A DNA stretch of 64,000 nt from Myxococcota bacterium (GCA_036560185.1 DATBRS010000247.1:6049-70048), one strand, 5' to 3'. Counted from the stretch's first letter, positions 20,001-54,283 are shown. A program made the numbers and translations. Notes: a model not told the origin generated them from the letters alone.

Positions 20001-20008
20001 GCGCCGGC

Positions 20009-34573: not shown

Positions 34574-35857
34574 ATGAGCGCGACCGCCGCCGCCGAATCC
34601 GACGCGCGCCTCCCGCAGCGCACGATCCTCACCGCGCTGTGCTTCGCCGCGGTCTTCATTTGTTACGTCGACCGCGTGAACATCTCGCTCGCGATCACCG
34701 CGATGGCGCGCGAGTTCGCCTGGGACAAGACGACGAGCGGCTTCGTCATGTCCTCGTTCTTCCTCGGCTACCTGCTCACGCAGGTGCCCGGCGGCTGGCT
34801 CGCCGGCCGCTTCGGCGGCAAGCACGTGCTCGCGGGCGGCGTGCTGCTCTGGTCGCTGTTCACCGCGCTCACGCCGCCCGCCGCGTTCGTGAGCTTCGCG
34901 GGCCTCGTCGCCGCGCGCGTCCTCATGGGCATGGGCGAGGGCGTCACGTTCCCGTCGATCTACGCGCTCTTCTCGCGCTGGGTCCCCGCGCGGCGCCGAT
35001 CGCGCGCGGTCGGCCTCGTGTTCAGCGCGATCCCGCTCGGCACCGTGTTCGCGCAGCTGACGACGCCCGCGCTCGTCAGCAGCTACGGCTGGCCGTGGGC
35101 GTTCTACGCGTTCGCAGGCTTCGGCCTCGTGTGGTGGGCTGCGTGGCAGCCGCTCACCGCCTCGGGCCCCGAGCTGCACGCGCGCACGACCGAAGCCGAG
35201 CTGCGCGAGCTGCGCGCGGATGCGGGCGTGGCGACGAACGCCGCAGCTCCGCCCCTGCGCGCGCTGCTCGGCAGCAGCGCGGTGTGGGCGATCGTGATCG
35301 GCCACTTCTGCAGCAACTGGGGGACGTACGTGATGCTCTCCTGGGCGCCGACGTATTTCCTCGAGCGCTTCGGCGTGGACTTCCACGCGGTCGGCCTCTA
35401 CGTGATGCTGCCGTCGCTCGTCTCGTTCGCGTGCCTGAACCTCGCGGGGCAGGTCGGCGACACGCTGATCGCCCGTGGCCTCGCCGTCCGCACGGTTCGC
35501 AAGCTGATGCAGAGCATCGGCTTCGGCGGCGTCGCTGCGGCGCTGCTCGCGCTGACGCAGGTGCAGAGCGCGGAGGTGGCGGTCGCCGTGATGTGCGTCG
35601 GCAACCTGCTCGGCGCCGCCGTCGCCGCGGGCTTCGGCAGCAACCACCTCGACATCGCGCCGCGCCACGCCGGCGCGGTGATGGGTCTCTCGAACACCGC
35701 GGGCACGCTGCCCGGCGTCATCGGCGTCACGCTCAGCGGCTGGCTCGTCGACGTCACCGGCTCGTGGTCGATCGTGTTCGTGGTCGCCGCCGGCGTGAAG
35801 CTGTTCGGGCTGGCGTTCTTCCTGACCTTCGCCAAGGGCGAGAAGCTGTTCGACTAG
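34574..35857 (+). CDS. MFS transporter (anion:cation symporter/ACS-like family)
   Basis: ATG at 34574 with an AGGAG SD. It contains CFAAVFICYVDRVNISLAI...GFVMSSFFLGYLLTQVPGGWLAGRFGGK and 12 predicted TM segments. Confidence 0.8.
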   Translation: MSATAAAESDARLPQRTILTALCFAAVFICYVDRVNISLAITAMAREFAWDKTTSGFVMSSFFLGYLLTQVPGGWLAGRFGGKHVLAGGVLLWSLFTALTPPAAFVSFAGLVAARVLMGMGEGVTFPSIYALFSRWVPARRRSRAVGLVFSAIPLGTVFAQLTTPALVSSYGWPWAFYAFAGFGLVWWAAWQPLTASGPELHARTTEAELRELRADAGVATNAAAPPLRALLGSSAVWAIVIGHFCSNWGTYVMLSWAPTYFLERFGVDFHAVGLYVMLPSLVSFACLNLAGQVGDTLIARGLAVRTVRKLMQSIGFGGVAAALLALTQVQSAEVAVAVMCVGNLLGAAVAAGFGSNHLDIAPRHAGAVMGLSNTAGTLPGVIGVTLSGWLVDVTGSWSIVFVVAAGVKLFGLAFFLTFAKGEKLFD

Positions 35858-35924
35858 GCGGCACCGACGTCGAGGTGCGGCGCGGGCGCGCGCCGGTTTA
35901 CGCTCGCGCCACACGAGGTTCGGC

Positions 35925-37154
35925 ATGCGCGCCGCGGACATCACCACCGCCGACCTGATGGATCTCGACCGCATCGTCGCGCGCGGAATGCCGCACGAGG
36001 AGCTGCGCGCGCTGCGCCGCGAGGCGCCGGTGAAGTGGTTCGCGTTCGAGGGGTCGCGCCCGGGGTTCTGGGCGATCACGAAGCGCTCCGACATCGTCGC
36101 GCTCTCGAAGCAGCCCGAGAAGTTCCTGATCGGGCCGCGCACCGCGGTGTTCGCGGAGAGCCCGCCCTCGAGCGAGCGCTCGATCGAGGCGCGCCACCTG
36201 TTGACGATGGATCCGCCCGAGCACGCCGAGTACCGCAAGCTCGCGAGCGCCTGGTTCACGCCGCGCGCGATCGAGACGCGGCGGCCGGAGATCACGAAGC
36301 TCGCGTGCGAGCTGCTCGACCGGCTCGCGCCCGCCGGCGAGTTCGACTTCGTGGCGGACTTCGCCGCGCCGCTCACGCTCTCGGTGCTCGCCGACATGTT
36401 AGGGGTTCCGCGTGAGGACTGGCCGCGCCTGTTCGACTGGACGAACCGCCTGATCGGCTCCGCAGACCCCGAGTTCCAGCACGGCCAGAGCAAGCTCTCC
36501 GACGAGCAGGCGACGCGCGAAACCTTCGCCTACTTCCGCGAGCTCGCCGCCGAGCGCGCGGCGCGCCCGACGCGCGACCTCACGAGCGTGCTGGTGAACG
36601 CGCGCATCGCGGGCGAGCCGCTGCCCGCGCTCGACCTGCTCTCGTACTACCAGCTGCTCGTGGTCGCTGGCAACGAGACGACGCGCAATGCGGCGAGCGG
36701 CGGGCTGATGGCGCTGATCGAGAACCCGCGCGAGCTGGGCAAGCTGCGCGCGAATCCGCAGCTCGTGAACCTCGCGGTCGAAGAGGTGGTGCGCTGGACC
36801 TCGCCGGTGGTCCAGTTCTGCCGCACCGGGGTCGAGGACTTCGAGCTGCGCGGCCAGAAGATCCGCGCGGGCGAATCGATGTGCCTCTTCTACGGCTCGG
36901 CCAATCGCGACGAGGAAGCCTTCGATCGGCCCGACGAGTTCCACGTCGACCGCAGCCCGAACCCGCACCTCGGCTTCGGGATCGGCGAGCACTTCTGCCT
37001 GGGCGCGAGCCTCGCGCGGCTCGAGCTGCGCGTGATCTTCGCCGAGGTCGCGCGCCGCTTCGCAAAGCTCGAGATCGTGAGCGAGCCGCCGCGCATGCGC
37101 TCGAGCCTGATCAGCGGCGTGAAGCGGCTGCGCGTGGCCTACCGGCTCGTCTGA
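35925..37154 (+). CDS. Cytochrome P450
   Basis: 409 aa. It has the I-helix AGNETT, the EEVVRW (ExxR) motif, and the heme-thiolate loop FGIGEHFCLGASLA. Confidence 0.9.
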   Translation: MRAADITTADLMDLDRIVARGMPHEELRALRREAPVKWFAFEGSRPGFWAITKRSDIVALSKQPEKFLIGPRTAVFAESPPSSERSIEARHLLTMDPPEHAEYRKLASAWFTPRAIETRRPEITKLACELLDRLAPAGEFDFVADFAAPLTLSVLADMLGVPREDWPRLFDWTNRLIGSADPEFQHGQSKLSDEQATRETFAYFRELAAERAARPTRDLTSVLVNARIAGEPLPALDLLSYYQLLVVAGNETTRNAASGGLMALIENPRELGKLRANPQLVNLAVEEVVRWTSPVVQFCRTGVEDFELRGQKIRAGESMCLFYGSANRDEEAFDRPDEFHVDRSPNPHLGFGIGEHFCLGASLARLELRVIFAEVARRFAKLEIVSEPPRMRSSLISGVKRLRVAYRLV

Positions 37155-37247
37155 CGCGGCGGCCCGCCGGAAGCAGCCGCTTCCCTCCCAGGGAATGGGC
37201 GCGCTTCCGTGCTGCGTCATGCTTCGCGCGCAGCGTGGGGGCCTCGC

Positions 37248-38054
37248 ATGGCAAGCGATCTCACTCTCTCTCCCTTCGGCCGGGTACTTCGCCGCTGGCG
37301 CGGCGTGCGCGGCATGAGCCAGCTAGATCTCGCGACCGCGGCGGCGACCTCGACGCGCCACCTGTCGTTTCTCGAGACGGGCCGCGCGCAGCCCAGCCGC
37401 GAGATGGTGCTGCGCCTCGCGCGCGCGCTCGACGTGCCGCTGCGCGAGCGCAACGCGCTGCTCGGCGCCGCGGGCTTCGCCGCGCTCTACCGCGAGAGCG
37501 CGCTCGAGGCGCCGGCGCTGAGCGCGCTCGTGCGCATGATCGATTTCACGCTCGCTCGCTTCGAGCCCTTCCCCGCGTTCTTGATCGACCGCTGCTTTCG
37601 CGTGCGGCGCGCGAACGCTGCGGCGGCGCGGGCGCTCGGCGGCTTCGCCGGCGCCGCCCCGGTGTGGCGCGAGCAGCCGCCGAACTTGTTACGGCTCACG
37701 CTGCATCCCGACGGGCTGCAGCCTCACATCGTGAACTTTCGCGAGGTCGCGGGCATGATGCTGGCACGGCTCGAGCGCGCCGTGGCGACCTCCGGCGGCG
37801 ACGCGGAGCTCTCGGCGCTCGAGCGCGAGCTGCGTGCGCTGCCGGGCTCGCCCGATGCGAGCGCGCTTCCCGTCACGATCGACCCCGTGATGCCGCTGCA
37901 TCTGAAGCGCGGCGCGCTCGAAGTCCGGCTGTTCACGATGCTCTCGCAGCTGGGCGCGGCGCAAGATGTCACGGCCGACGAGCTGCACATCGAGACGCTG
38001 ATGCCGGCGGACGCGGCGAGCGAGGCGGCGCTGCGCGAGCTCGCGCCGAGCTGA
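37248..38054 (+). CDS. XRE-family HTH regulator with MmyB-like ligand-binding domain
   Basis: The HTH RGVRGMSQLDLATAAATSTRHLSFLETGRAQPSREMVLRLARAL is followed by LDVPLRERNALLGAAGFA and a C-terminal domain of MmyB type. Confidence 0.75.
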   Translation: MASDLTLSPFGRVLRRWRGVRGMSQLDLATAAATSTRHLSFLETGRAQPSREMVLRLARALDVPLRERNALLGAAGFAALYRESALEAPALSALVRMIDFTLARFEPFPAFLIDRCFRVRRANAAAARALGGFAGAAPVWREQPPNLLRLTLHPDGLQPHIVNFREVAGMMLARLERAVATSGGDAELSALERELRALPGSPDASALPVTIDPVMPLHLKRGALEVRLFTMLSQLGAAQDVTADELHIETLMPADAASEAALRELAPS

Positions 38055-38103: not shown

Positions 38104-38433
38104 CTAGGCCGCTCGGGCCGAAGCGACGCGCGGCGCCGAGCGCAGAGCGCGCGCCTCGCGATGGATCAGATACAGCAGCGGCCCGGCGACGCCGAGCGCC
38201 AGCGTGATCGCGACGTAGGGCGCAAAGGGCGTGCGCGTCGCGCGCGAATCGCCGCGCATCCAGAGCAAGACGAGGCAGAGCGAGATCGTCAGGTCGACGC
38301 CCGCGAGCACGGTCGAGGTGCTGCGCAGCATCTCGACGTAGAAGCCGAGCAGGCCTGCGGTCGCGAGCACGTACGCGGTGAGGGCGAGGAACGGCAGCAG
38401 CACGGCGCTGTACACGAGTTGGCGAGTGGACAT
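38104..38433 (-). CDS. Small integral membrane protein (109 aa, DUF2834-like)
   Basis: ATG at 38433 with an AGGAGAA SD. It has three hydrophobic segments (VYSAVLLPFLALTAYVLATAGLLGF; LAGVDLTISLCLVLLWM; YVAITLALGVAGPLLYLI). Confidence 0.55.
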   Translation of the reverse strand: MSTRQLVYSAVLLPFLALTAYVLATAGLLGFYVEMLRSTSTVLAGVDLTISLCLVLLWMRGDSRATRTPFAPYVAITLALGVAGPLLYLIHREARALRSAPRVASARAA

Positions 38434-38590
38434 CGGGTTCTCCTGGGGGCTGCGGGAACTGAAGCGCCAGGTCGATGGGGCCGCGATTCCCCGAGAGGGA
38501 ACGAACGCCACACGGCTCCGAGAGCGCTGCTGCCCGCCCTGCGCCCGGCCCCTCCCCGCGGCGCATGCGTTCCGTATCTTGCGCGGACCC

Positions 38591-39655
38591 ATGGCCGCCC
38601 TCCTGCGAACGCCAGCGCCCCCCGCCGCTTCGAGCGCGGCCGCAGCGAGCCCGCCCGACTCGCTCGAGCGCGAGCTGGCGGCGACGCACCGCCCGCGGCC
38701 GGCGATTTATTGGGTGGACTTCCTCGCCTGCGTCGCGATCGGCTGGCCGGCTTTCGCGCTCGCGGTGGCGAGCTGGGGCAGCGGCGCCGCGTGGCTCGCA
38801 CTCGGCGTGGCGGTGTTCGCGCTCTACCGCGCCGCGCTCTTCATTCACGAGCTCACGCACCTCGCGAGCGGCGCGGTGCCCGGCTTCCTCGCGGCCTGGG
38901 ACGCGCTCGCGGGCTTCCCGCTGCTGGTTCCGAGCCTCATGTACGTGGGCTCGCACGGGGAGCACCACAAGGCGCACATCTTCGGCACCGCCGCGGATCC
39001 CGAGTACGCGCCGATCGCGCACTGGAGCCGGCCGCGGCTGCTCGTCGCGACACTGGGCATGCTGCTCATCCCCGCGGCGCTCGTGCTGCGCTGGGGCCTG
39101 CTCGTGCCGCTGGGAGCACTCGTGCCGGCGGTGCGGCGCTTCGCGATCACGCATCTCTCGACTCTCGCGATCAACGCGAGCTACGAACGCAAGCCGCCGA
39201 AGGGCGTGCTCAAGAAGCGCTGGCTCCGGGAAGAGCTCGGGTGCATGGCGGTGGTGTGGGCAGCGGGCGTGGCGCTCGCGCTCGGCGCGCTGCCCGTTCG
39301 CGCGCTCGCGCTCTGGTACGGGCTCGTCTCCGCGATCCTCATGATCAACCACCTGCGTACGCTCGGCGCGCACCGCTACGCGAACGAAGGCGCGGCGATG
39401 ACGCTCGACGAGCAGGTCGCGGACTCGGTGAACCTGTGGGGCCCCGCCTGGCTGCGTCCGCTCACCGCGCTGCTCGCGCCGGTAGGCCTGCGCTTCCACG
39501 CGCTGCATCACTTCTTCCCGACGCTGCCGTATCACGCGCTCGGCGCCGTGCATCGCCGGCTCGTGCGCGAGCTGCCCGCGGGCGCGGTCTACCGCACGAC
39601 CTCGCAGCCCGCGCTCACGAGCGCCCTGGTCGCGCTCGCGAACAAGCTGAAGTAG
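38591..39655 (+). CDS. Membrane fatty-acid desaturase/hydroxylase family protein (three His boxes)
   Basis: ATG at 38591. The His boxes are HELTH, HGEHH and HALHH, with TM segments between them. The HELxH...HxxHH layout recalls lipid and sphingolipid desaturases/hydroxylases. Confidence 0.75.
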   Translation: MAALLRTPAPPAASSAAAASPPDSLERELAATHRPRPAIYWVDFLACVAIGWPAFALAVASWGSGAAWLALGVAVFALYRAALFIHELTHLASGAVPGFLAAWDALAGFPLLVPSLMYVGSHGEHHKAHIFGTAADPEYAPIAHWSRPRLLVATLGMLLIPAALVLRWGLLVPLGALVPAVRRFAITHLSTLAINASYERKPPKGVLKKRWLREELGCMAVVWAAGVALALGALPVRALALWYGLVSAILMINHLRTLGAHRYANEGAAMTLDEQVADSVNLWGPAWLRPLTALLAPVGLRFHALHHFFPTLPYHALGAVHRRLVRELPAGAVYRTTSQPALTSALVALANKLK

Positions 39656-39667: not shown

Positions 39668-40633
39668 TCAGCGCAGCGCGCCGGAGCGAAGCAGGCGGAA
39701 GATCACGGGCCACGCGTAGAGGAGCGGGCGGCGACGTTGCCGTTCGCTGAGCTCGATCTTCGCTCCGCTGTGGCGCTCGACCTTCCAGACCGCGTAGGGC
39801 AGCCAACCCTGAAACGTGAACGCGGTCTTCAGCAGGCCAGCGATCGCGAGCGCCTTCGCGAGCGGACGTCGCGCGCGCCACGCCCGGCGGGCGCGCACGC
39901 GCTCGGCGAGCGGCTGCGCGACGCGCACGCTGGCCTCGTCGGCGTCCAGCAGCTCGATCTCGCCGCGCTCGGCGAGCGCGGCGAGCGCCGCGCGCAGCAC
40001 GGCGGCGTAGCGCGCGGGGTCGGCCGCCGCGATCGCGTCGATCGAGGCGGGGCGCTCGCTGCGCAGCTCGGCGCGATACGTCTCGCGGAACGCGTCGGCC
40101 CAGAGCGTGCGCACCGCGAGCGTTCGTTCGGGCGCATCGCCCGGAGCCCACGCGAGCATGCGCGACGCCATCGTGAGCGCCGCGGAAGCAGCGGCGGCGA
40201 CGATCGCGGTGCGCGCCTCTTCGTCGCGCGCCCACACCAGGCGCGCGGGCTGACAGAAGCGCGACCAGATGCGGCAGTCGACGCTCGCCGGCGTCGCCCG
40301 CCGCGCGAAATCCGCGAGCGAGATCAGCGCGTACTTCGCGCGCAGATTCTCCGCGCGCAGCTCGAGGTAGTGAACGTTCGGCGGCAACGCGGCGCCGAGC
40401 GCCGCGAGCGCGGAAGCGCCGTACGCGCCGCGGTAGCCGTCGACGATCACGTAGAAGTCGAGCACGCCTTCGCTGACGCCGCGGCGCAGGCACGAGCCGT
40501 AGAACAGCAGCGCGACGACGGCGGCGCCGTGGCGCGCGTGCAGCTCGCTCGCGAGGCGCTGCGCGCCGGGCAGCACCGGGCCCGCGAGCTCGGCCCGGAA
40601 GAGCGCCTCGAGAGCGTCGCGCGCGCTCGCCAA
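39668..40633 (-). CDS. Hypothetical protein, possible Tam41/Mmp37-like nucleotidyltransferase (phosphatidate-cytidylyltransferase-like fold)
   Basis: 321 aa. An NTase-type hG[GS]...D pattern (LLFYGSCLRRGVSEGVLDFYVIVD) is followed by HYLEL...LRAKYALISLADFARR and RIWSRFCQPARLV. As I recall, these parallel conserved Tam41 blocks. This rests on motif reading only. Confidence 0.35.
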   Translation of the reverse strand: MASARDALEALFRAELAGPVLPGAQRLASELHARHGAAVVALLFYGSCLRRGVSEGVLDFYVIVDGYRGAYGASALAALGAALPPNVHYLELRAENLRAKYALISLADFARRATPASVDCRIWSRFCQPARLVWARDEEARTAIVAAAASAALTMASRMLAWAPGDAPERTLAVRTLWADAFRETYRAELRSERPASIDAIAAADPARYAAVLRAALAALAERGEIELLDADEASVRVAQPLAERVRARRAWRARRPLAKALAIAGLLKTAFTFQGWLPYAVWKVERHSGAKIELSERQRRRPLLYAWPVIFRLLRSGALR

Positions 40634-40637
40634 ACGA

Positions 40638-41594
40638 TTAGGCGCGCGCGAAGCGCACGCTCTCCTCGGCGGTGATGGTGTAGGCGGCGTCGGCTTCGAT
40701 CGGGAACAGCTCGCCGTCCACGGTCACCTCGCAGCCGGCGCGCAGCGAGGCGCACGAGACTCGCGCGCTCGTGTAGCCGTGCTCCGGCGTCGCGAAGGCG
40801 GGGGCGCGGCCGCGCAGGATCTGCGGAATCGTGCGCGCCAGGCGCTCCGCGTTGCCTCGCACGAGCGTCGTGCGGATCGGCCCCTCGCCCGCTCCCCAAC
40901 AAGGCCGGAAGCCGAAGATCAGCCGCTCGAGCGTGGTGAACAGCGTGACCAGGCGCCGTTCATCGGGCAGCGGCTTGCCGTCGAACGCGAGCCCGATCTC
41001 GTCGGGATGCATCAGCGCGCCACGCGCGCCCGTGAGGATGTTGGCGACCAGCGTGCACGTGACGAGCGCGACGCCGATCGTCTCCTGCAGCCGCCCTTTC
41101 GGCAGATGGCGCGTGGTGAGCGACACGGCGCGCCCGAGCATGCCCGCCGCGGCGAACATGCCGCAGCGCACCTCACCGCTTCGCTGGCGCGCGACGCGCA
41201 ATACCGCGCGCGATGCGATGCGCGCCTCCAGCTTGCCCGCGCGCGCGTCCGCGACGATCTCGCGCAAGCCCTGCGCGCCGTCGCGCACGGCGCCGAGATC
41301 GGCCGCGGTCATGTTGGTTCGGCCGCCGCGAATCGGCGCGATCACCGGCAGCCAGCTCGGCCGGCCGGTCGCGAGCAGCGCGGTGAGGGCGCATTCGAGC
41401 GTGCCGTCGCCGCCGTTGACGATCAGTAGCTCGACGTCCGCGCGGCGCATCCGCTCGATCGCCTCGGGCACCGCGGCCGCCGAGGGCGTCGCGAAGTGCA
41501 TCACGTCGGGGGCACCCTCGACCTCGCGCAGGATGCGCTCGCCGAGGCGCTTGTTGCGGCCGGCGCGCAGGTTGTTGAGGAGGCCGATGCGCAA
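40638..41594 (-). CDS. Diacylglycerol-kinase catalytic-domain (DAGK_cat/LCB5/YegS-type) lipid kinase
   Basis: 318 aa. It has the signature LLIVNGGDGTLECAL and the pattern IAPIRGGRTNMTAADLG. TTG start. Confidence 0.75.
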   Translation of the reverse strand: MRIGLLNNLRAGRNKRLGERILREVEGAPDVMHFATPSAAAVPEAIERMRRADVELLIVNGGDGTLECALTALLATGRPSWLPVIAPIRGGRTNMTAADLGAVRDGAQGLREIVADARAGKLEARIASRAVLRVARQRSGEVRCGMFAAAGMLGRAVSLTTRHLPKGRLQETIGVALVTCTLVANILTGARGALMHPDEIGLAFDGKPLPDERRLVTLFTTLERLIFGFRPCWGAGEGPIRTTLVRGNAERLARTIPQILRGRAPAFATPEHGYTSARVSCASLRAGCEVTVDGELFPIEADAAYTITAEESVRFARA

Positions 41595-41633
41595 CTCGCG
41601 TTCTCGCTCGCGTGCGGGGCTCGTTCGTGCGCC

Positions 41634-42581
41634 CTACTGGTAGAACGTGTAGCTCGCGATCGCCGTACCCTCGCGCCGCGCCGCCCGCGCGCCCTCGCGC
41701 ACGTCGATCGCGAACGGTGACGCCATCCACGCCGACCGCAAGCGCAGCCCGAGCACGAAGCGGATGGGCGCCGGCAGGTCGGCGAGCGGGTCGTAGCTGG
41801 CGAGCGGCGCGCCCGCGCTCAGCACGCCGGGCGCGAGCGGGCCCGCCAGCGCGAGCCGCGCGGCCGGAGCGTCGAGCTTCTCGTTCGGAACCTGCGTCGC
41901 ACTCTCTTGCGCGAGCAGCTTGCCGTGCGCGTCGAACGCGACGACCCAGCGCTCGGCGCGCTTTCCGTTCGCGACCTCGAGCACGTAGATCGGCGCGGCG
42001 CCGAGGGTGAAGGCCTCGAGGCGGCGCTGCGCGAGCTTGGACTCCGGCCCTTCGATCTTGCGCCGCGAGAGCGCGACGCGGCCCTTGCCGGCGAGCGGTG
42101 CCGCCATGCCGCGCTTCCAGAACGACGCATTCAGCGGAGCGCCGGCGGCCCATAATTCCTGCGTCCACTTTCCGCCGGCGAGCGTGTGGGTGGCGAGCGG
42201 CGCCGCCGCGAGCGGGAAATCGAGCGTCAGCTGCAGACTCTTCTTCTCGACGCGCAGCTGCGCGCGCGGCTGCGTGCGATCGAACACGAACTTGCCGAGG
42301 TCGATGCGCTTGCCGTCGGGGCTCGGCGTCCATGCGCCGCCGAGCTTCGCGCGCGAGAAGGGCGTGAGCGCGCCGTCCGGCGCGAGCCAGTTGCCGATCG
42401 CCGCTGCGTTGCGCTCGCCGGGCCCGATGTCGGTGAGCGTGAACTCGACGAACACTTGCTCGCCAGAATCGAGCCGCGCGGCGAGCAGCCACCATTCGGT
42501 CGGCGCCGCGTGCGCGGCGGCAGCCGCCGCAAGCCCGAGCCCACACGACCAGCGCAGCACGGCAGCGAGCATGCGGAACAC
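41634..42581 (-). CDS. Secreted protein of unknown function (possible AttH/CrtC-type lipocalin-like fold)
   Basis: Signal peptide MFRMLAAVLRWSCGLGLAAAAAAHA. The mature N-terminus APTEWWLLAARLDSGEQVFVEFTL recalls the EWWY motif of AttH-like lipocalin domains, which is weak evidence. It lies inside the lipid operon. Confidence 0.4.
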   Translation of the reverse strand: MFRMLAAVLRWSCGLGLAAAAAAHAAPTEWWLLAARLDSGEQVFVEFTLTDIGPGERNAAAIGNWLAPDGALTPFSRAKLGGAWTPSPDGKRIDLGKFVFDRTQPRAQLRVEKKSLQLTLDFPLAAAPLATHTLAGGKWTQELWAAGAPLNASFWKRGMAAPLAGKGRVALSRRKIEGPESKLAQRRLEAFTLGAAPIYVLEVANGKRAERWVVAFDAHGKLLAQESATQVPNEKLDAPAARLALAGPLAPGVLSAGAPLASYDPLADLPAPIRFVLGLRLRSAWMASPFAIDVREGARAARREGTAIASYTFYQ

Positions 42582-42587: not shown

Positions 42588-43754
42588 TCAGCGCTGCGAG
42601 GCCATCTGCGCGAGCGCGATCTCTTCCTCCCACGGGCGCAGCGTGCGGCCGGCCGCGCGCAGCGCGAGCGCGTGCGCGAGCCGCGCGACGTGGAACGCGA
42701 TCGAGAGGCCCGTCCACCAGGCCACCGCTTCGAAGCCGAGCGCCGGCGAGCCGGCGAGCGTGCAGAGCGTCAGCAGCACGAGGTTGGGATTGCGGCGCGC
42801 CGTAATCAGTCGAAAGAAGGAATCGAGCGGCCGCCACGAGTGCGTCTCGAATCCGCACGCGAGCATGAAGACGCCCTCGAGCAGACGGCCGGCGACGTAG
42901 CCGCCGATCACGACGAGCGCGGCCGGGGATTGGAGGCCCACGCCGATGCCGAGCGCCCACGCGGCCCACCAGACGGGTGGATGCGCGAGGTCGAGCCCGT
43001 GATCGAGCCAGTGCCCGATCGGCGACGAGCTCTGCGTGACGCGCGCGAGCTTGCCGTCGACCGTGTCGAGGAAGGTCATGCACCACGCGGCGCCGAGGCC
43101 GAGGCCGAACTCGCCGTGCGCGAACGCGAACGTCGCGTAGAGCACGAGCGCCCAGCTCATCAGCGTGACGACGTTCGGCGTGATGCCGAAGCGCGCGCAC
43201 GCTCTCACGACGCGGAACGCGAGCGGGGGCCACGCGTACTTCGTGATGAAATCCGTGACGCCCTTGTAGGACGCGTCGAACAGTGCCCGCTCGATCTCCG
43301 CCGCGTTCCCCGGCGTCGCGATGCGCAGCAGCGGAGGCGCGAGCTTGCGCAGCTCCGGCGTGTAGGCGGGCGCGAGCTGTTCGGCGCTGCGCACGGCGAC
43401 CCCGCCGAGCGGCGCACCGCCCGCGAGCCATGCCGCGGCTTCCGCGGCGCGCTCGCCCGCGACCACCGCGGCGGCCGGCCCCGCGCTCTCCGCGACCAGC
43501 GCGACGGGGTCGCCCGTGAGCAGCTGCTTCGCGATGCGCTCGTCGAGCACCGCGTCGCCGCGCACGAGCAGCACGAGCTCCCCGTCGCGAGCGGCTCCCG
43601 CACTCGCGCCGCCGGCGCTGACCTCGCCTGCGCCCGCGCGCGAGAAGGTCTGCGCGAGGCGCGCGTCGCTGCGCTGCGCGAACAGGACGGGGAGGGGCGC
43701 GCCGGAGGGCGCGAGCACGAACACGCGGCGCGCAGCGGCCTCGGCGCCGCTCAT
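42588..43754 (-). CDS. Fusion of a degenerate nucleotidyltransferase-like domain to a CDP-alcohol phosphotransferase (copy 1)
   Basis: ATG at 43754 (GAGGAG upstream). The C-terminal half carries the family motif DTVDGKLARVTQSSSPIGHWLDHGLD (D-G-x2-A-R...G-x3-D-x3-D) within multiple TM helices. The N-terminal ~190 aa are alpha/beta-like (VFVLAPSG...LVLLVRGDAVLDERI). It is a paralog of 45633..46931. Confidence 0.75.
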   Translation of the reverse strand: MSGAEAAARRVFVLAPSGAPLPVLFAQRSDARLAQTFSRAGAGEVSAGGASAGAARDGELVLLVRGDAVLDERIAKQLLTGDPVALVAESAGPAAAVVAGERAAEAAAWLAGGAPLGGVAVRSAEQLAPAYTPELRKLAPPLLRIATPGNAAEIERALFDASYKGVTDFITKYAWPPLAFRVVRACARFGITPNVVTLMSWALVLYATFAFAHGEFGLGLGAAWCMTFLDTVDGKLARVTQSSSPIGHWLDHGLDLAHPPVWWAAWALGIGVGLQSPAALVVIGGYVAGRLLEGVFMLACGFETHSWRPLDSFFRLITARRNPNLVLLTLCTLAGSPALGFEAVAWWTGLSIAFHVARLAHALALRAAGRTLRPWEEEIALAQMASQR

Positions 43755-43781
43755 TCGCTCCTCATCCGCGCGCAGCGTTGC

Positions 43782-44759
43782 GTGCCCATTCGCATCCTCG
43801 AGTCGGGCTCCCAGCGACCGGCGCGTATCATAGGCCGGTACGCTCTGGAGGTCGCCGCGCTGTTCCGGCTCGCCCACGTTTCCGATCTGCACGCTACGCG
43901 CGTGCGCTTCTCCGGCCTCGCTGAGCTGAACGCGAAGCGCGCGCTCGGCTGGCTCTCCTGGCAGGTGCGGCGGCGCCGCAAGTACCGGCCCGAGATCGCG
44001 GCGCGCGTGATCGACGATTTGGTCGCGAGCGCCCCCGATCACGTCGCGGTGACCGGCGATCTCACGCACATGGGCCTCGACGCGGAAGTCGCGGAAGCCG
44101 CGGCGTGGCTCGCGCGGCTCGGCCCGCCCGAGCGCGTGACGCTCGTCCCCGGAAATCACGACGCGTATGGCGCGCGGCTCGATCACGCCTGCATGGACGC
44201 ATGGCGCCCCTATTTAAATTCAGACCAGGGCGCGCGGGGCGCGACGCGAGCGGCGGCGCCCTTCCCCAGCCTGCGCGTTCGCGGTCCGGTGGCGCTCGTG
44301 GGCCTCAGCTCCGCCGTGCCCACGCCGGTGCACCTCGCGACCGGGCGCGTCGGCGAGGCGCAGCTCGCCGCGTTGCCCGACCTGCTGCGCGACCTCGCTG
44401 CGCGCAAGCTCTGCCGCGTCGTGCTCGTCCACCACCCGCCGACGCGCGCGCACGTCTCGTGGCGGCGGCGCCTCGAAGACGGCCCCGCGCTGTGCCGGAT
44501 CCTCGCGCGCGCCGGCGCCGAGCTGGTGCTGCACGGGCACACCCATCGCGCCGCGCGCGACGCGATCGCGAGCGCGCATGGGCCGATCCCGGTGCTCGGC
44601 GTGCCCGCGACGTCCTCCGCCGTGCGCGCTCGGCCGGGCGCTTATCAGGTGTTCTCGATCGCAGAGCGCGGCGCAGGCGGCTACGCGATCTCGCGCGAGC
44701 TGCGCGAGATCAGCGGCGTATCAGGCCCGCTGCGCTCGCTCGGCAGCGAATCGCTCTAG
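43782..44759 (+). CDS. Calcineurin-like metallophosphoesterase
   Basis: Motifs are HVSDLH, VTGDLTH, PGNHD, LVHHPP and VLHGHTH. The start is uncertain. GTG at 43782 is the first canonical start, but a CTG at 43860 sits 8 nt after a GGAGG and would give the typical N-terminus (M)FRLAHVSDLH. Confidence 0.75.
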   Translation: MPIRILESGSQRPARIIGRYALEVAALFRLAHVSDLHATRVRFSGLAELNAKRALGWLSWQVRRRRKYRPEIAARVIDDLVASAPDHVAVTGDLTHMGLDAEVAEAAAWLARLGPPERVTLVPGNHDAYGARLDHACMDAWRPYLNSDQGARGATRAAAPFPSLRVRGPVALVGLSSAVPTPVHLATGRVGEAQLAALPDLLRDLAARKLCRVVLVHHPPTRAHVSWRRRLEDGPALCRILARAGAELVLHGHTHRAARDAIASAHGPIPVLGVPATSSAVRARPGAYQVFSIAERGAGGYAISRELREISGVSGPLRSLGSESL

Positions 44760-44761
44760 GG

Positions 44762-45568
44762 CTAGGCCCCGCGTTTCAGCAGCCGCTCGACGAGCGCGAA
44801 ATCCTCGAGCTTGTCGACGTCGATGCCCGCGCGGCCGTCCGCGAGCCGCACGGCGCCGATGCGCGCGCCGCTGGCTCGCGAGATCGCCTCGAGCGCGGCC
44901 TCGAGGGGCAGGCGCCCGGCCATGAAGCGCGCGAGCGTGACCGCGCCGAACACCGCGGCGAGGCGCCAGGGCTCCTTGCGGAAGCCCTCGGCTCTGCGCC
45001 AGAACGCGGCGACGCGCGCGGCGCCGGGCGTGCGCGCCAGGAACAAGTTCGCGCCGGTGAAGCGCTCGCGGCCGAGCCGCAGCCAGGTTCGCTTGTTATG
45101 GGGAGCGACTGCGAGCACCGCCAGGTCGGGCACGAGCGCCACGCACAGGTCGTTCCCGCTCGCGAGCGCGTCGTCGAGGAATGCGCTGACCGTGGCGGCC
45201 GCGAGCAGCGGATGATCGGCGGTCGTCACCAGCACGAGCGCACTCGCGCTGCGCTCGACGAAATCGCGCACGCTGTCCGCGGGCGACGAGCCGCTCGCGT
45301 GCAGCGCGAGCTCGCCGGAGGCGAACGCGGGGCCGAACTCAGGATGGCGCCGCAGCGCCTCGGGGTCGTCGATGCTGATCGTGATCTGCCCGACCGCCGG
45401 CACGGCGCGCAGCGCCTCCAGCACGTACGAGAGCAGCGGCCGCCCATGCATCGGCGCCAGCGCCTTGTGCGTGACCCCCGCCGCGCGCGCGATCGGCTCC
45501 TCGCCGCCGCGCCGGCCGGCGAGCACGAGCGCAGCCACCGTCTCCGTTCGCTTCGGCTTCGTGAGCAC
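44762..45568 (-). CDS. MobA-like (NTP_transf_3) nucleotidyltransferase family protein
   Basis: 268 aa. The N-terminus AALVLAGRRGGEEPIARAAGVTHKALAPMHGRPLLSYVLEAL and the later LVTTADHPLL are typical of this fold. Confidence 0.65.
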   Translation of the reverse strand: MLTKPKRTETVAALVLAGRRGGEEPIARAAGVTHKALAPMHGRPLLSYVLEALRAVPAVGQITISIDDPEALRRHPEFGPAFASGELALHASGSSPADSVRDFVERSASALVLVTTADHPLLAAATVSAFLDDALASGNDLCVALVPDLAVLAVAPHNKRTWLRLGRERFTGANLFLARTPGAARVAAFWRRAEGFRKEPWRLAAVFGAVTLARFMAGRLPLEAALEAISRASGARIGAVRLADGRAGIDVDKLEDFALVERLLKRGA

Positions 45569-45632: not shown

Positions 45633-46931
45633 ATGCTGCCGCGCGCTGCAGGGAGTGGCCGCGTGTCAGCGATTCGTTTCGCGATCTGGATCGACGCGAC
45701 TCCTCCCGAGAGCGCGCTGCGCGTCTTCGGCATGTCGCTCGTCGAGCGGCTGCTCGCCGCCGTCGCACAGCTCGCGGGTGCGAAGAACGCGCGCTTCGCG
45801 CTCGCGAGCGTCGTGGTGGAGCACGCGCCGGCGGCCGCGCCGCGGCTGCGTGCCGATCTCGCGGCGCGCCTCGGCGCGACGCTCGCCGAGGCGCGCGGCA
45901 CGCTTTCCGAGCGCATCGCGCGCGCCGCCGCGCGCGACGCGAACGCCGTGCTGCTCGCGCTGCCAGGCGACGCCATCGTCGACACGCGCGTGCTCGCCGA
46001 GTTGCTGCGCGAAGCGGATAGCGCGATCGCTCTCGCGGACGAGGGTGCACGACGCACGGCGCTGGTGCGCCTCGCGGCGAGCGCGGTGCCGGCGCCGGCG
46101 AGCGCGAACGATCTGCGCGGCCTCGCCGAGGCGCAGCGCGCCGCGGGCACAGCGCGCGTGCTCCCGCTCTCGGCGATTGCGGAGCACATCGCCGACCTGC
46201 GGCGCGATCAGCCGGCCTATGCGTTTCGGCTCGCCGCGAGCGAGGTCGCGTCCACCGAGCGCTGGCTGTTCTGGTCGAACTACAAGGGCTCGACCGACTT
46301 CCTGACGCGCTTCGTCTTCCCACCTTTCGTGTGGGCAGCGGTGCGCCCGCTCGCGCGCCTCGGCGTCCACCCGAATTGGGTGACGGGGCTGGCGGTGCTG
46401 CTGTGCTTCGGTGCGATCCCGCTCTGGGCGCATGGACATTGGGCGCTCGGCTTCGCGGCCGCCTACGGGATGGCGGTGCTCGATTCCGTCGACGGCAAGC
46501 TCGCGCGCCTCACCTTCACCGCCTCGACGCTCGGGAACGTGATGGACCACGGAACCGACATCCTGCATCCGCCGTTCTGGTACGCGGCGTGGGCGTGGGG
46601 TCTGGCCGGTGGACCTCACGGCCCGGTCTACGAGCTCACGCTCTGGATGTTCGGGCTGTACACGCTCGACCGGCTGGTCGCGCCGATCTTCCGCGCGATG
46701 ACGCAGAAGTCGATCCACGGCTACGCGCCGATCGACGTCGCGATGCGCACGTTCATCTCGCGGCGCAACGTCAACCTGCCGGTCTTCACCGTCGCGCTGC
46801 CGCTCGGGCTCGGCGCCGAGGCGATCGTGCTCGTGGTGGCGTGGCAGGCCGCGTGCTTCGTGTTCCACGCGGTGCGCTGCGCGCAGGTGGCGATCAGCCT
46901 CGAGCGCAGCGCGAGCCGGGCGACGCGGTGA
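45633..46931 (+). CDS. Fusion of a degenerate nucleotidyltransferase-like domain to a CDP-alcohol phosphotransferase (copy 2; IPCT/DIPPS-like architecture)
   Basis: Motif LDSVDGKLARLTFTASTLGNVMDHGTDILHPP within TM helices. The N-terminal domain resembles an NTase (ALPGDAIVDTRVLAELL), but the Gly-rich loop reads AIWIDATPPES. The junction ERWLFWSNYKGSTDFLTRFVFPPF matches copy 1 (ERALFDASYKGVTDFITKYAWPPL). An alternative GTG start at 45663 has a better GGGAG SD. Confidence 0.75.
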   Translation: MLPRAAGSGRVSAIRFAIWIDATPPESALRVFGMSLVERLLAAVAQLAGAKNARFALASVVVEHAPAAAPRLRADLAARLGATLAEARGTLSERIARAAARDANAVLLALPGDAIVDTRVLAELLREADSAIALADEGARRTALVRLAASAVPAPASANDLRGLAEAQRAAGTARVLPLSAIAEHIADLRRDQPAYAFRLAASEVASTERWLFWSNYKGSTDFLTRFVFPPFVWAAVRPLARLGVHPNWVTGLAVLLCFGAIPLWAHGHWALGFAAAYGMAVLDSVDGKLARLTFTASTLGNVMDHGTDILHPPFWYAAWAWGLAGGPHGPVYELTLWMFGLYTLDRLVAPIFRAMTQKSIHGYAPIDVAMRTFISRRNVNLPVFTVALPLGLGAEAIVLVVAWQAACFVFHAVRCAQVAISLERSASRATR

Positions 46932-47075: not shown

Positions 47076-48239
47076 GTGCGCGTCTGCTTCCTGTTCAACC
47101 ACTACGCCACGCACCAGCTGATGCACGCCGCGCCGTTCGCGTTCGAGCTCTCGCGCCGGCACGCGAAGGCGGAGGTGGTCGTCGCCTGCACGAGCGAGGA
47201 GCAGCTGCACGCGGCGCGGCGCATCGCGGAGCTCTATCCCGGCCAGCGCGCGGAGTTCGTGCGGCTGCGCATGTCGCTGCTCGACCGCGTCGCGGCGGCA
47301 GCGCTCGCAGGCTTCACCTTCCTCGCCAAGAAGCGAATGCTCGCCAGCAACCTCGACTTCTTCCGCGGCTTCGACGCCGTCGTCGCGCCCGAGCGCACGA
47401 TGCTGAAGCTGCGCACGAAGCACGGCCTGGCGCACGTGAAGCTGATCAACGCGCGGCACGGTCAGGGCGATCGCGAGGGCAGCTTCGACGCGCGCACGCG
47501 CGAGCTCGATCTCACCCTCGTGGGCGGCCGGAAGTACATCGAGCGCTTCGCCGAACACGAGATCCTGCGCGAGGGCCACACCGCGATCGTCGGCTACCCG
47601 AAGTTCGAGGTGTGCGACGCGCTGCCGGCGCCGCCGCGCTTCTTCGAAAACGACCGGCCGGTAGTCGTCTACAACCCGCACTTCGACGCGACGGAATCGT
47701 CCTGGCAGACCCAGGGCCGCGCGGTGCTCGCTTGGTTCGCAGCGCAGGCCGAGTACAACCTGATCTTCGCGCCGCACGTCGTGCTGTTCGCGCGCGCCTG
47801 GCGCCATCGCGCGCGCGTCCCGCGGCGAATTCGCGAGGCGCGCAACATCTTCGTGGACACCGGCAGCGAGGCGAGCGTCGACATGACCTACACGCGCGCC
47901 GCGGACATCTATCTCGGCGACGCGAGCAGCCAGGTCTACGAGTTCATCGCGAAGCCGCGGCCCTGCGTGTTCATCGACGCCCAGCGCGCGCGCGCGGCCG
48001 CGCCCGCGAAGTACGCGCACTGGCGCTTCGGGCCCGTGATCGAACGCGCCGATCAGCTGGGCGAAGCGCTCGCGCGTGCGCGGCGCGACTTCCCCGCGTA
48101 CCTCGCCGCGCAGCGCGATGCGTTCGCCTACACCTTCTCCACCGACGCAGCGCGCACCCCGGGACAGCGCGGCGCCGACGCGATCTACGAGTTCCTCGAG
48201 AAGGGCCGCATCGTGTCGGAGTGCTACCGCGCGGGCTGA
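47076..48239 (+). CDS. GT-B-fold transferase, TagB/TagF (CDP-glycerol glycerophosphotransferase)-like
   Basis: 387 aa. VVYNPHFD... and AADIYLGDASSQVYEFIAKPRPCVFID parallel the YAPT.../LITDYSSvxFDF blocks of the Glyphos_transf family. This is a tentative assignment. Confidence 0.4.
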   Translation: MRVCFLFNHYATHQLMHAAPFAFELSRRHAKAEVVVACTSEEQLHAARRIAELYPGQRAEFVRLRMSLLDRVAAAALAGFTFLAKKRMLASNLDFFRGFDAVVAPERTMLKLRTKHGLAHVKLINARHGQGDREGSFDARTRELDLTLVGGRKYIERFAEHEILREGHTAIVGYPKFEVCDALPAPPRFFENDRPVVVYNPHFDATESSWQTQGRAVLAWFAAQAEYNLIFAPHVVLFARAWRHRARVPRRIREARNIFVDTGSEASVDMTYTRAADIYLGDASSQVYEFIAKPRPCVFIDAQRARAAAPAKYAHWRFGPVIERADQLGEALARARRDFPAYLAAQRDAFAYTFSTDAARTPGQRGADAIYEFLEKGRIVSECYRAG

Positions 48240-49012
48240 CGCGCCGGCGCATCTTCGATCGGCGCGGCGCGGCTCTTGCGGCGGCTCTCGAAGAGCCGAT
48301 GCGCCCACTCGGCATCGCCCGCGACCAGGCGATTCGCCTCCGCGATGGCGCGCCGCAGGATCAGCATGCGACGGCGCCACAGCATGCGCGGCACGCTGCG
48401 CGTTGCAGTTGTGCGCGAGAAGCGCTCGTGCCGCAGCGCGCTGAGGCCCGAGGGCGGCAGCCCGAGGTAGGCCTCGACGCGCGCGAGCGAGCGCGCCGGC
48501 TCGGCGATCAGCTCGGAAGATTCGAGCACGAGCTTGTCGCCGTCATGCGCGCGCCAGCCCTCGGCGAAGCGGCGGAGCTCGTCGCTGAGCCCCGTCGCCC
48601 GGCCGCGCTGCTGCCAGCCGCGCTCCGAGAAGCAGAACGCGAACTCGTAGCTCTTGGTGGGCCACGCTCCGGTCTCCTCGCCGCGCCGGTAGGCGGAGAC
48701 GATCTCCTCGGCGTCTCGTAACAAGATCACCTTCGGCACGCGCTGCAGCACCGCTTGGTTCCGCGGCGTCGGCGGGAAGTGGAACTTCGCGAGCCGATCG
48801 CGCGCGGCCAGCACGCCCGCGACGCGCTCGTCGAGCTCGACGAAATCGCGGCGGTGGAACTGCGCGGCGTGCCAGTAGCCCGGCGCGATCGGGCGCCGGA
48901 GCAACACCTCGTCGCGGATGCGGCGCGTATCGACGGACAGGGCATGCGTTGCGGCCAACGTCTCGACGAGCGCGCTGCTCGCGCTCTTCGGGATGGCGAC
49001 GATCAGGCTCAC
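48224..49012 (-). CDS. Sulfotransferase-family protein (PAPS-dependent type)
   Basis: It has a 5'-PSB-like motif IVAIPKSASSAL, a 3'-PB-like motif KVILLRDAEEIVSAYRR, and a C-terminal block LESSELIAEPARSLARVEAYLGLP. The ATG overlaps the upstream NTase stop by 4 nt. Confidence 0.55.
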   Translation of the reverse strand: MSLIVAIPKSASSALVETLAATHALSVDTRRIRDEVLLRRPIAPGYWHAAQFHRRDFVELDERVAGVLAARDRLAKFHFPPTPRNQAVLQRVPKVILLRDAEEIVSAYRRGEETGAWPTKSYEFAFCFSERGWQQRGRATGLSDELRRFAEGWRAHDGDKLVLESSELIAEPARSLARVEAYLGLPPSGLSALRHERFSRTTATRSVPRMLWRRRMLILRRAIAEANRLVAGDAEWAHRLFESRRKSRAAPIEDAPARQPAR

Positions 49013-49779
49013 GCGCCGGGCTCCACCGAGCGCGGCGACTCGCGCGCTCGCGCGCGCGCCGCGAGCCCTTTGCGCACCGCCTCGAGGTCATCGAGCGAAT
49101 CGATCTCTCCCCACCACAGGCCTTCCATCGAGCACGCGCGCACGAGCCCGTGGCGCGCGAGCTCGCCGATCGCGGTGGTGTAGTAGGCGCGCTGCTGGCC
49201 GTAGCGGCGCACGAGCTGCTCGAAGCTCTCGCGGATCGCGACCGCTCCCGAGCCGCGCAGCAGCGTCATGCCGATCGCCTCGCCTTGGCTCTCCGGCGGT
49301 TCGAGATCCTTGCCGATCGCCCTCACCAGCCCGCGCTCCAGGCACACCTTCATGTCGTCGTCGTCGTAGCTCGGCTTCACGTTGACCACGATCGTGACGG
49401 GGCTCGGCGGCGCGGCGAAGAGCCGCTCGACGACCGCGCCCTCGAACAGCGTGTCGCCGTTCAGGAGCACGCACTCGCCGTCGAAATCGCGGCTCGCGAG
49501 CCAGGCCGTGATCAGGTTGTCGGCCTGATCGAAGAACGGGTTGTATCGGACCCGCAGTGCGAGGCCGGGCACCGGCGCAGCGGCCGCGAAGCGCTCGACC
49601 TTCTCGATGCCGTAGCCCGCCATCACCACGGCTTCGCGCACACCGTGGGCCGCGAGCTCGCGCAGCTGCACCTCGAGCACCGAGCGGTCGCCGTCGACGG
49701 GCACGAGGCACTTCGGCAGATCCCGCGTCACGGGGAACAGGCGCCGGCCTTGCCCCGCGCTCAGGATGATGGCTCGCAC
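49009..49779 (-). CDS. NTP_transferase-family nucleotidyltransferase (LicC / phospho-alcohol cytidylyltransferase-like)
   Basis: GTG at 49779 with a GGAGAG SD. It has the Gly-rich loop RAIILSAGQGRRLFPVTRDLPKCLVPV, LLNGDTLF, and WGEIDSLDDLE at the C-terminus. Confidence 0.75.
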   Translation of the reverse strand: MRAIILSAGQGRRLFPVTRDLPKCLVPVDGDRSVLEVQLRELAAHGVREAVVMAGYGIEKVERFAAAAPVPGLALRVRYNPFFDQADNLITAWLASRDFDGECVLLNGDTLFEGAVVERLFAAPPSPVTIVVNVKPSYDDDDMKVCLERGLVRAIGKDLEPPESQGEAIGMTLLRGSGAVAIRESFEQLVRRYGQQRAYYTTAIGELARHGLVRACSMEGLWWGEIDSLDDLEAVRKGLAARARARESPRSVEPGA

Positions 49780-49877
49780 CGTGGTGGCTCTCCGTTCCGC
49801 GCGTTCCCGCTGCGCCGAGGCTGGCGCGCATTGTCGTCTACCGGACCGATTCAACAAGGTGGGTAAGCTGCGCGCGC

Positions 49878-53021: not shown

Positions 53022-53056
53022 CGGATCTATTCGACAAAGTCGCCAGTTACGACCGA

Positions 53057-54205: not shown

Positions 54206-54243
54206 GCGCGACCGCGGCGTGCGCCGGTCAGCCCGCATCCCGC

Positions 54244-54274
54244 GGAAGCAAAGGGGTCAGACCCCTTTGCTTCC
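54244..54274 (+). other. Perfect 13-bp stem-loop between the spt-like gene and the SDR gene
   Basis: GGAAGCAAAGGGG-tcaga-CCCCTTTGCTTCC lies in the 78-nt spacer. There is no flanking U-tract on either strand. Confidence 0.6.
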
Positions 54275-54283
54275 GGGCGCGCC

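Follow-up and report, generated by a model that had tools for sequence, protein, structure and literature searches.

A stretch of 64,000 nucleotides from a Myxococcota bacterium (GCA_036560185.1, DATBRS010000247.1:6049-70048; the whole stretch is hereafter called the window) contains three closely spaced genes at positions 39668-42581, and the question arises of which lipid these genes serve and by what chemistry. A first-pass annotation, made from the sequence alone, had described them as genes of a lipid kinase, a possible Tam41-like cytidylyltransferase and a secreted lipocalin-like protein. It had proposed that the first two enzymes convert a neutral lipid, ceramide or diacylglycerol (DAG), to a lipid phosphate and then to a lipid activated with cytidine diphosphate (CDP), which the adjacent CDP-alcohol phosphotransferase could use directly. 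Judged by sequence, the sphingolipid head-group pair cpgB-cpgC of Caulobacter is represented here in a Myxococcota version, accompanied by a gene for a periplasmic protein of the lipid-binding type.

Operon Structure and Orthology with the Caulobacter cpg Genes

Three co-directional open reading frames (ORFs) were found on the minus strand at the positions given in the first-pass annotation, 3' of a CDP-alcohol phosphotransferase gene, and the reported gaps of 4-39 nt were reproduced. Together with the phosphotransferase gene, they form the following run:

39668-40633, minus strand: cpgC-like gene of a predicted nucleotidyltransferase (NTase) of the Tam41 superfamily (321 amino acids (aa), TTG start)
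40638-41594, minus strand: cpgB-like gene of a lipid kinase with a DAGK_cat fold, a putative ceramide kinase (318 aa)
41634-42581, minus strand: gene of a predicted secreted or periplasmic AttH/CrtC-like tandem beta-barrel protein (315 aa)
42588-43754, minus strand: cpgA-like gene of a CDP-alcohol phosphotransferase (copy 1) with an N-terminal cytosolic domain, the first gene of the operon (PF01066, E-value 1.4e-9)

The intergenic gaps across the run are 4, 39 and 6 nt, and the start codon of copy 1 is the ATG at 43754. In all four ORFs the GC content is about 0.9 at the third codon position and below 0.6 at the second, in a window with approximately 72% GC; this pattern is typical of true coding frames in the window. 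The operon has the order cpgA-like, attH-like, cpgB-like and cpgC-like, and the three genes make up its distal portion.

For comparison, the corresponding Caulobacter vibrioides locus (L006, 8 kb) was fetched via the sequence of a 21-mer deletion primer from the supplement of PMC11324152. The primer gave four matches, two of which were located in metagenome-assembled genomes (MAGs) of Actinomycetota (L007 and L008) and were set aside as chance. It was found that the 321-aa protein has 39% identity to CpgC (CC_1161/CCNA_01219) over 284 aa (E-value 5e-52), and the kinase has 27% identity to CpgB (CC_1160/CCNA_01218) over 317 aa, that is, over its full length (E-value 6e-18). Copy 1 of the phosphotransferase is 46% identical to CpgA (E-value 9e-88), and a divergently oriented metallophosphoesterase is 43% identical to CC_1158 (E-value 9e-62). 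The published identities between orthologs are 30-39% for CpgC and 25-28% for CpgB (PMC11324152, supplement), and the identities of the window proteins to CpgC and CpgB fall within these ranges.

The gene order and the divergent layout are the same in the window and in Caulobacter, save for the gene of the secreted AttH-like protein, which is an extra gene between cpgA and cpgB in the window. The pair of kinase and Tam41-like genes is not new, being the known cpgB-cpgC pair, and the locus is a new Myxococcota-type representative of the known cpgA-cpgB-cpgC system with lineage-specific additions. The likeness to the Caulobacter CpgB-CpgC system, which belongs to the pathway of ceramide diphosphoglycerate (CPG2), includes full-length similarity, gene order and the divergent CC_1158-type phosphoesterase, as well as linkage to spt, LptF/G paralogs and nucleotidyltransferases. 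The window differs in carrying, besides the attH-like gene, another CDP-alcohol phosphotransferase paralog, LptF and LptG in fused form and a gene of the sulfotransferase type. Moreover, a desaturase/hydroxylase gene adjoins the operon in the window, whereas its Caulobacter counterpart CC_0202 is located elsewhere in the genome, and the host of the window is Myxococcota-like, whereas Caulobacter is an alphaproteobacterium.

Conservation of the Gene Neighbourhood

The 321-aa protein is part of a large group of proteins without annotation: a word-indexed search revealed more than 1600 proteins related to it, and an exhaustive search with a hidden Markov model gave 1602 clusters at 50% identity (E-value ≤ 1e-3). 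The nearest named relatives are from MAGs assigned to Myxococcota or 'Deltaproteobacteria'. Many of the approximately 1600 family clusters come from Myxococcota-type metagenome contigs. Two alignments of the family were used, one of 30 relatives (for structure modeling and the metagenome scan) and one of 150 diverse representatives.

A scan based on the 30-sequence alignment yielded 80 metagenome loci with a relative of the 321-aa protein, and neighbouring genes were sought in them using tblastn with the window and Caulobacter proteins; the denominators given below are the loci that could be evaluated. In 55 of 58 loci, the gene directly preceding the Tam41-like gene, on its own strand, encodes a CpgB-like kinase; two of the three exceptions have a cpgA-like or NTase gene beside the Tam41-like gene instead. 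Farther upstream, a CpgA-like transferase was found in 19/31 loci, and in 17/37 a gene for a distant homolog of the secreted protein separated those of transferase and kinase. The upstream flank also contained the metallophosphoesterase (18 of 22 loci) and a MobA-like NTase (19 of 22), and in 20 of 45 a desaturase/hydroxylase gene closely followed the Tam41-like gene. Serine palmitoyltransferase (Spt) was encoded within 10 kb in three of the nine loci with long flanks. With more than 1600 relatives of the 321-aa protein and the adjoining kinase in 55/58 loci, the gene arrangement is far beyond chance.

Two natural fusions were revealed as well. In P0249 (662 aa; L009, 4390-6378), a DAGK_cat domain is fused to a Tam41-like domain, and the gene is located beside a cpgA-like gene. 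In P0133 (594 aa; L010, 7364-9148), the Tam41-like domain follows a MobA-like NTP_transf_3 domain. For a pathway common to the kinase and the Tam41-like protein, such fusions provide independent evidence. The neighbourhood of P0133 is of a polyketide/fatty-acid type.

Lipid Kinase

The GGDGT motif of DAGK_cat enzymes, reported earlier for the 318-aa protein, is present as NGGDGT, and the protein exceeds the Pfam gathering score for DAGK_cat (28.3 versus 23.6 bits, E-value 1.5e-6). Bacterial ceramide kinases are recognized by a DAGK_cat fold, a GGDG ATP-binding motif and the lack of the CxxxCxxC motif of the eukaryotic CERK (PMC10331486), and no CxxxCxxC motif was found anywhere in the kinase sequence. 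The Caulobacter ortholog CpgB is a biochemically proven ceramide kinase (PMC10331486).

It had been left to check whether the protein groups with NAD kinases or with YegS. By match scores, it is closer to CpgB than to either: in contrast to the E-value of 6e-18 with CpgB, the match to YegS (2p1r) had an E-value of 0.19, and the NAD_kinase Pfam score was below the cut-off. The identity of the protein as an NAD kinase or YegS was rejected on these grounds.

The 321-aa Tam41-like Protein

Tam41, a mitochondrial CDP-DAG synthase, converts phosphatidic acid and cytidine triphosphate (CTP) into CDP-DAG and pyrophosphate. The resemblance of the 321-aa protein to this enzyme had been proposed from motifs, and the first-pass annotation itself called it the weak link. 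Direct searches with the 321-aa protein gave no Pfam or NCBIfam match at E-value ≤ 0.1 and no sequence match in the PDB, either with the single sequence or with two family profiles. The NTase pattern hG[GS]...D, which had also been described, is there in the form FYGSCLR...GVLDFYV, and its residues G46, S47 and D59 are conserved at ≥90% in the alignment of 150 diverse relatives.

Modeling with AlphaFold 2 (AF2), based on the 30 relatives, led to a model with a predicted local distance difference test score (pLDDT) of 93.4 and a predicted TM-score (pTM) of 0.90. The model consists of an N-terminal alpha/beta NTase domain, a helical (winged-helix) domain with a beta-hairpin wing and long C-terminal helices; a predicted NTase fold, on which the earlier proposal depended, is thus part of it. 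The four top matches in a Foldseek search were the Tam41 structures 6ig4 and 6ig2 (E-values 3e-8 to 1.5e-7, TM-scores 0.47-0.56, 268-289 columns), which makes Tam41 the nearest solved structure. The next matches, antibiotic nucleotidyltransferases (ANT), were weaker by about four orders of magnitude.

Relatives of the protein also lead to Tam41. PF09139 was matched by 18 of the 150 family representatives at E-value ≤ 0.01 and was the sole recurrent Pfam family. The relative P0161 belongs to the family of the 321-aa protein (E-value 8e-85 to the family profile), and it scores above the PF09139 gathering score (34.3 versus 24 bits) and matches the crystal-structure sequences of Tam41 from S. pombe (SpTam41, E-value 3.7e-6) and Firmicutes (FbTam41, E-value 0.015). 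The sequence link from the 321-aa protein to PF09139 is transitive only, via relatives such as P0161. It is because of structure prediction and this relative, not of direct sequence search, that the link to Tam41 became visible.

Seven residues (K100, R125, F126, P129, Y186, R191 and E193) are identical in the 321-aa protein, CpgC, two relatives, SpTam41 and FbTam41, with the Tam41 segments taken from the alignments of P0161 to SpTam41 and FbTam41. All of them except F126 are conserved at ≥90% in the 150-member alignment, and F126 is invariant in the 30-sequence alignment. The conserved residues of the Tam41 motifs KYG, GRFxKP and SYxGDxR..AE are present in the 321-aa protein, and R98, K100 and R125 are near-invariant in the alignment of 150. 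After G46-S47, D59 is the only one of the three canonical NTase carboxylates that is conserved; its position corresponds to the second Asp in the DxD motif of MNT. Tam41, too, has kept a single acidic residue of the canonical NTase three and binds CTP through basic residues (PMC11646218).

The last 82 residues of the 321-aa protein, which the model shows as helical, include 19 Lys or Arg, 4 Asp or Glu and 9 aromatic residues. Tam41 has a basic amphipathic membrane-binding tail at its C-terminus (PMC7018664), and in composition the C-terminus of the 321-aa protein looks like this tail.

The likeness to Tam41/TAMM41 (Mmp37) and its Firmicutes homolog (6IG2, 6IG4, 7ECD; PF09139) thus comprises the NTase domain, the winged-helix domain, the basic C-terminal helices, the single retained NTase aspartate and the common residues of KY, RFxxP and YxxxxRxE. 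There are also differences: the CpgC family has a much more conserved C-terminal block and conserved residues of its own, namely W123, Q128 (Lys in Tam41) and E189 (Asp in Tam41), and the substrate of its predicted activity would be ceramide-1-phosphate, according to the genetics of Caulobacter, versus phosphatidate for Tam41. The Tam41 assignment is supported by the model and by these residues at the superfamily level; by its own score, the protein stays below the PF09139 threshold.

The Secreted AttH-like Protein

The 315-aa protein starts with a basic and hydrophobic, signal-peptide-like N-terminus that ends in AHA|AP and is followed by an invariant T28-E29-x-W31 (TEWW), in agreement with the EWW-type N-terminus described earlier. 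The protein had no match among Pfam, NCBIfam or PDB sequences, including the AttH, CrtC and lipocalin families, and 48 close homologs of it were found. In its AF2 model (pLDDT 89.3), an N-terminal helix (residues 2-23) precedes an all-beta structure, for which the top Foldseek match was AttH NE1406 (2ICH; E-value 2e-9, TM-score 0.6), followed by fungal pericyclases and kievitone hydratase. The predicted fold is an AttH-type tandem lipocalin-like double beta-barrel. The term lipocalin-like therefore remains apt for the fold, and a classical single-domain lipocalin was rejected.

The likeness to AttH NE1406 and CrtC-like proteins, decalin-forming pericyclases and kievitone hydratase is one of fold and covers the whole length (E-values 2e-9 to 1e-6, TM-scores 0.5-0.6), and these tandem barrels bind hydrophobic molecules. 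The 315-aa protein differs from them in having no family match at the sequence level, with 8-14% identity, and there is no evidence of hydratase or cyclase chemistry for it. The gene is absent from the fetched Caulobacter operon region. Since the protein is exported, it is unlikely to act in a cytoplasmic activation route; it would rather be a lineage-specific periplasmic accessory that probably binds or modifies the lipid after export.

The Sphingolipid Head-Group Island

The operon is located in a sphingolipid head-group island of approximately 17 kb (38.3-55.1 kb). The locus is described as such because the rest of the Caulobacter gene set is represented in the window, by the MobA-like and LicC-type NTP transferases, the Glyphos_transf-like protein, the LptF/LptG fusion, the short-chain dehydrogenase and Spt. 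Besides the operon, the following genes were identified in the island:

38378-39655, plus strand: fatty-acid desaturase/hydroxylase-family gene, converging on the Tam41-like gene (FA_desaturase, E-value 2.4e-24)
43860-44759, plus strand: divergent CC_1158-like metallophosphoesterase (Metallophos, E-value 1.9e-13)
44762-45568, minus strand: MobA-like NTP transferase of the CC_1153 Pfam type (NTP_transf_3, E-value 2.8e-14; CTP_transf_3, E-value 7e-8)
45633-46931, plus strand: CDP-alcohol phosphotransferase copy 2, of a non-CpgA subfamily (PF01066, E-value 3.7e-8)
47076-48239, plus strand: Glyphos_transf-like protein of the CC_1167 family type (PF04464, E-value 1.8e-6; CC_1167 carries IPR007554)
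48224-49012, minus strand: sulfotransferase-like gene
49009-49857, minus strand: LicC-type NTP transferase, a candidate CpgD-like cytidylyltransferase (NTP_transferase, E-value 4e-11)
49878-52136, plus strand: fused LptF/LptG permease, 752 aa (PF03739 in two stretches, E-value 1e-109)
52215-53021, plus strand: 268-aa protein between the LptF/G fusion and spt, with a weak match to 2-oxoacid_dh (CAT-like acyltransferase; E-value 1.7e-6)
52925-54205, plus strand: Spt (E-value 1.2e-130 to the SPT structures 8guh and 3a2b)
54206-55084, plus strand: short-chain dehydrogenase beside spt, a candidate sphingoid or ceramide ketoreductase (adh_short, E-value 1.6e-39)

Spt, the LptF/G fusion and two nucleotidyltransferases are thus encoded within 15 kb of the three-gene set, and the presence of Spt bears out the sphingolipid setting that had been considered for these genes. 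The true start of Spt is probably near 53027. The LptF/LptG fusion, which immediately precedes the spt region, is the counterpart of the sphingolipid-linked Caulobacter paralogs LptF2 and LptG2, each of which has a gene of its own. Caulobacter sphingolipids are hydroxylated on the acyl chain by the DesA-family protein CC_0202 (PMC11324152). The best PDB sequence matches of the LicC-type NTase include the CTP:phosphocholine cytidylyltransferase LicC, and no CpgD chain was matched there; the gene of CpgD itself (CC_1152) is located beyond the 8-kb Caulobacter locus. The 268-aa protein may be an N-acyltransferase of the sphingolipid pathway, going by its sequence match; a homolog of it adjoins the Tam41-like gene in another locus (L082).

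The start of the phosphoesterase gene is uncertain and may be either GTG at 43782, which overlaps the cpgA-like gene, or CTG at 43860, which fits the homologs better. Near the start expected from homologs there is no ATG, GTG or TTG, and in the interval 43754-43860 the divergent 5' ends are very close or overlapping.

Both phosphotransferase copies score best against (archaetidyl)inositol-phosphate synthases. Copy 2 is 44-72% identical to its own orthologs versus 31-38% to CpgA, and in the direct comparison with Caulobacter CpgA the identity was 39% over the C-terminal 232 aa only. Its subfamily is found alongside the CpgA type (copy 1) both in the window and in the loci L001, L014, L015, L031, L050 and L076.

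The sulfotransferase-like and Glyphos_transf-like genes hint at head-group variants, possibly sulfated. A sulfotransferase gene also flanks the Tam41-like gene of P0161 (L011/L012, 8358-9383), together with LptF, LptG, Asp_Arg_Hydrox and an Elm1-like gene. Just upstream of the island, at 35826-38054 on the plus strand, a cytochrome P450 and a MmyB-like regulator are encoded, and farther off, at 16608-24667, an alkyl sulfatase, an arylsulfotransferase-like protein and an indoleamine 2,3-dioxygenase homolog.

Proposed Pathway

According to the genetics of Caulobacter, the Tam41-like protein acts after ceramide-1-phosphate (PMC9393093): the delta-cpgC mutant keeps (accumulates) ceramide phosphate and is without ceramide phosphoglycerate (CPG) and CPG2 (PMC9393093). 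The one step that requires CpgA, a CDP-alcohol phosphotransferase of the PgsA type, is the conversion of CPG to CPG2 (PMC9393093; PMC11324152); the donor of this enzyme is believed to be CDP-glycerate, supplied by CpgD (PMC12275187).

On balance, we lean towards a reading in which the locus is orthologous to the ceramide (di)phosphoglycerate route of Caulobacter, with the operon in a sphingolipid island and CDP-ceramide as the likeliest product of the step from the kinase to the Tam41-like protein. The kinase would phosphorylate ceramide to ceramide-1-phosphate, as has been demonstrated for its ortholog CpgB, and the 321-aa protein would act on ceramide-1-phosphate as a peripheral-membrane enzyme of the Tam41 superfamily. 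By analogy with Tam41, the most likely chemistry would be the reaction of CTP and ceramide-1-phosphate to CDP-ceramide and pyrophosphate, after which a transferase would exchange cytidine monophosphate (CMP) for the head-group alcohol, glycerate or phosphoglycerate. CDP-ceramide is suggested because the chemistry of Tam41 offers a parallel and the residues of the Tam41 pocket are conserved. The direct use of this product by the adjacent phosphotransferase, as originally envisaged, was weakened, since CpgA, its Caulobacter ortholog, can be lost without blocking the CpgC-dependent step and is believed to take CDP-glycerate; the consumer would probably be another enzyme, with the copy 2 paralog as a candidate.

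The idea of a CDP-ceramide-type intermediate has a precedent in the literature: in 2024, Olea-Ozuna et al. drew attention to the Tam41 InterPro domain of CC_1161 and suggested an 'NDP-activated ceramide' (PMC11324152), where NDP stands for nucleoside diphosphate. The term 'CDP-ceramide' itself was not found in the literature searched.

Several points weigh against this reading. No CDP- or NDP-ceramide has ever been detected, and the mechanism of CpgC was called 'unidentified' in 2025 (PMC12275187) and again in May 2026. The delta-cpgA mutant still makes ceramide phosphoglycerate (PMC9393093), so that CpgA, the only CDP-alcohol phosphotransferase of the Caulobacter cluster, is not required for the CpgC-dependent step and is an unlikely consumer of CDP-ceramide. 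The 321-aa protein does not reach the PF09139 profile threshold (Tam41/Mmp37, IPR015222), and it is remote from Tam41, with approximately 14% identity, a TM-score of about 0.5 and a root-mean-square deviation of 6-7 Å. Nucleotide specificity is not readable from the sequence, and the preference of the kinase for ceramide over DAG is suggested by orthology at 27% identity and by context only.

Alternative Explanations

The main alternative is that the Tam41-like protein acts on ceramide-1-phosphate without forming a CDP-lipid, whether by making ceramide activated with adenosine, guanosine or uridine diphosphate (ADP-, GDP- or UDP-ceramide), by joining (phospho)glycerate directly (Zik et al.) or by nucleotidylation of a later intermediate. 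We regard it as rather unlikely, with a good deal to be said for it: the Caulobacter authors describe the mechanism in the word cited above, the original model was direct glycerate addition (PMC9393093), ATP is the substrate of NTase-fold relatives such as the ANT enzymes, no transferase of the Caulobacter cluster is known to accept CDP-ceramide, and W123, Q128 and E189 are unlike Tam41. However, forming an ester directly from a phosphomonoester and glycerate is energetically unfavourable (PMC11324152). It also counts against this alternative that the residues common to the two CTP-using Tam41 enzymes are exactly the invariant ones of the family, and that the rest of the island is built on CMP/CDP chemistry, with two CDP-alcohol phosphotransferases and cytidylyltransferase-type NTases.

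It is much less probable that the pair consists of a DAG kinase and a classical Tam41-type CDP-DAG synthase that feed the neighbouring phosphotransferases and lead to a glycerophospholipid. Tam41 and its Firmicutes homolog do make CDP-DAG, DAGK_cat kinases include DAG kinases, and Spt was close by in only a third of the long-flank loci. Against this, the characterised ortholog of the kinase is a ceramide kinase (PMC10331486), the loss in delta-cpgC is specific to the ceramide phosphoglycerates while ceramide phosphate is kept (PMC9393093), the window contains the whole cpg gene set as well as Spt and an LptF/G paralog, and the CpgC family is a clade distant from bona fide Tam41. Least probable of all would be a non-catalytic role, in which the Tam41-like protein serves as a lipid-binding scaffold or chaperone and hands ceramide-1-phosphate on to another enzyme. 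In favour of this role, the protein lacks two of the three canonical NTase carboxylates and the most conserved block is the basic and aromatic C-terminal region. Yet active Tam41 enzymes likewise keep one carboxylate (PMC11646218), and the polar residues K100, R125, Y186, R191 and E193 stay unchanged all the way from the bacterial proteins to yeast Tam41, a pattern typical of active sites.

If CDP-ceramide is taken as the product, a wider and more tentative proposal can be made. It is speculated that copy 2 could be the missing head-group transferase or could add a different head group. We consider it possible, though doubtful, that the Tam41-like enzyme makes CDP-ceramide and the copy 2 subfamily consumes it, which would amount to a sphingolipid counterpart of the CDP-DAG pathway running from kinase to cytidylyltransferase, phosphotransferase and phosphoesterase. 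Such a route would resemble those of PgsA with PGP phosphatase and of PIP synthase with its phosphatase, where a lipid phosphate is turned into a CMP-activated lipid that is used by a CDP-alcohol phosphotransferase and then a phosphoesterase; the phosphotransferases of the window are like inositol-phosphate synthases, and the metallophosphoesterase is conserved in the cluster. However, this is an analogy only, with a ceramide lipid and a hypothetical liponucleotide, and the CpgA ortholog is thought to use the soluble donor CDP-glycerate, not a CDP-lipid.

Significance

Anionic ceramide phosphoglycerates allow Caulobacter to live without lipopolysaccharide and are its polymyxin target, and the CpgC step is the only reaction of their pathway without known chemistry. 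The pair of kinase and Tam41-like protein belongs to a large family that extends well beyond Alphaproteobacteria and is almost always linked and sometimes fused. As the residues of the Tam41 catalytic pocket are kept, a CTP:ceramide-1-phosphate cytidylyltransferase is the leading hypothesis for this step, and the window offers candidates that are absent from the Caulobacter cluster, namely the second CDP-alcohol phosphotransferase and the AttH-like periplasmic protein. If CDP-ceramide does not exist, the locus would be a well-conserved ortholog of a known operon; if it does, CDP-ceramide would be a new class of activated lipid.

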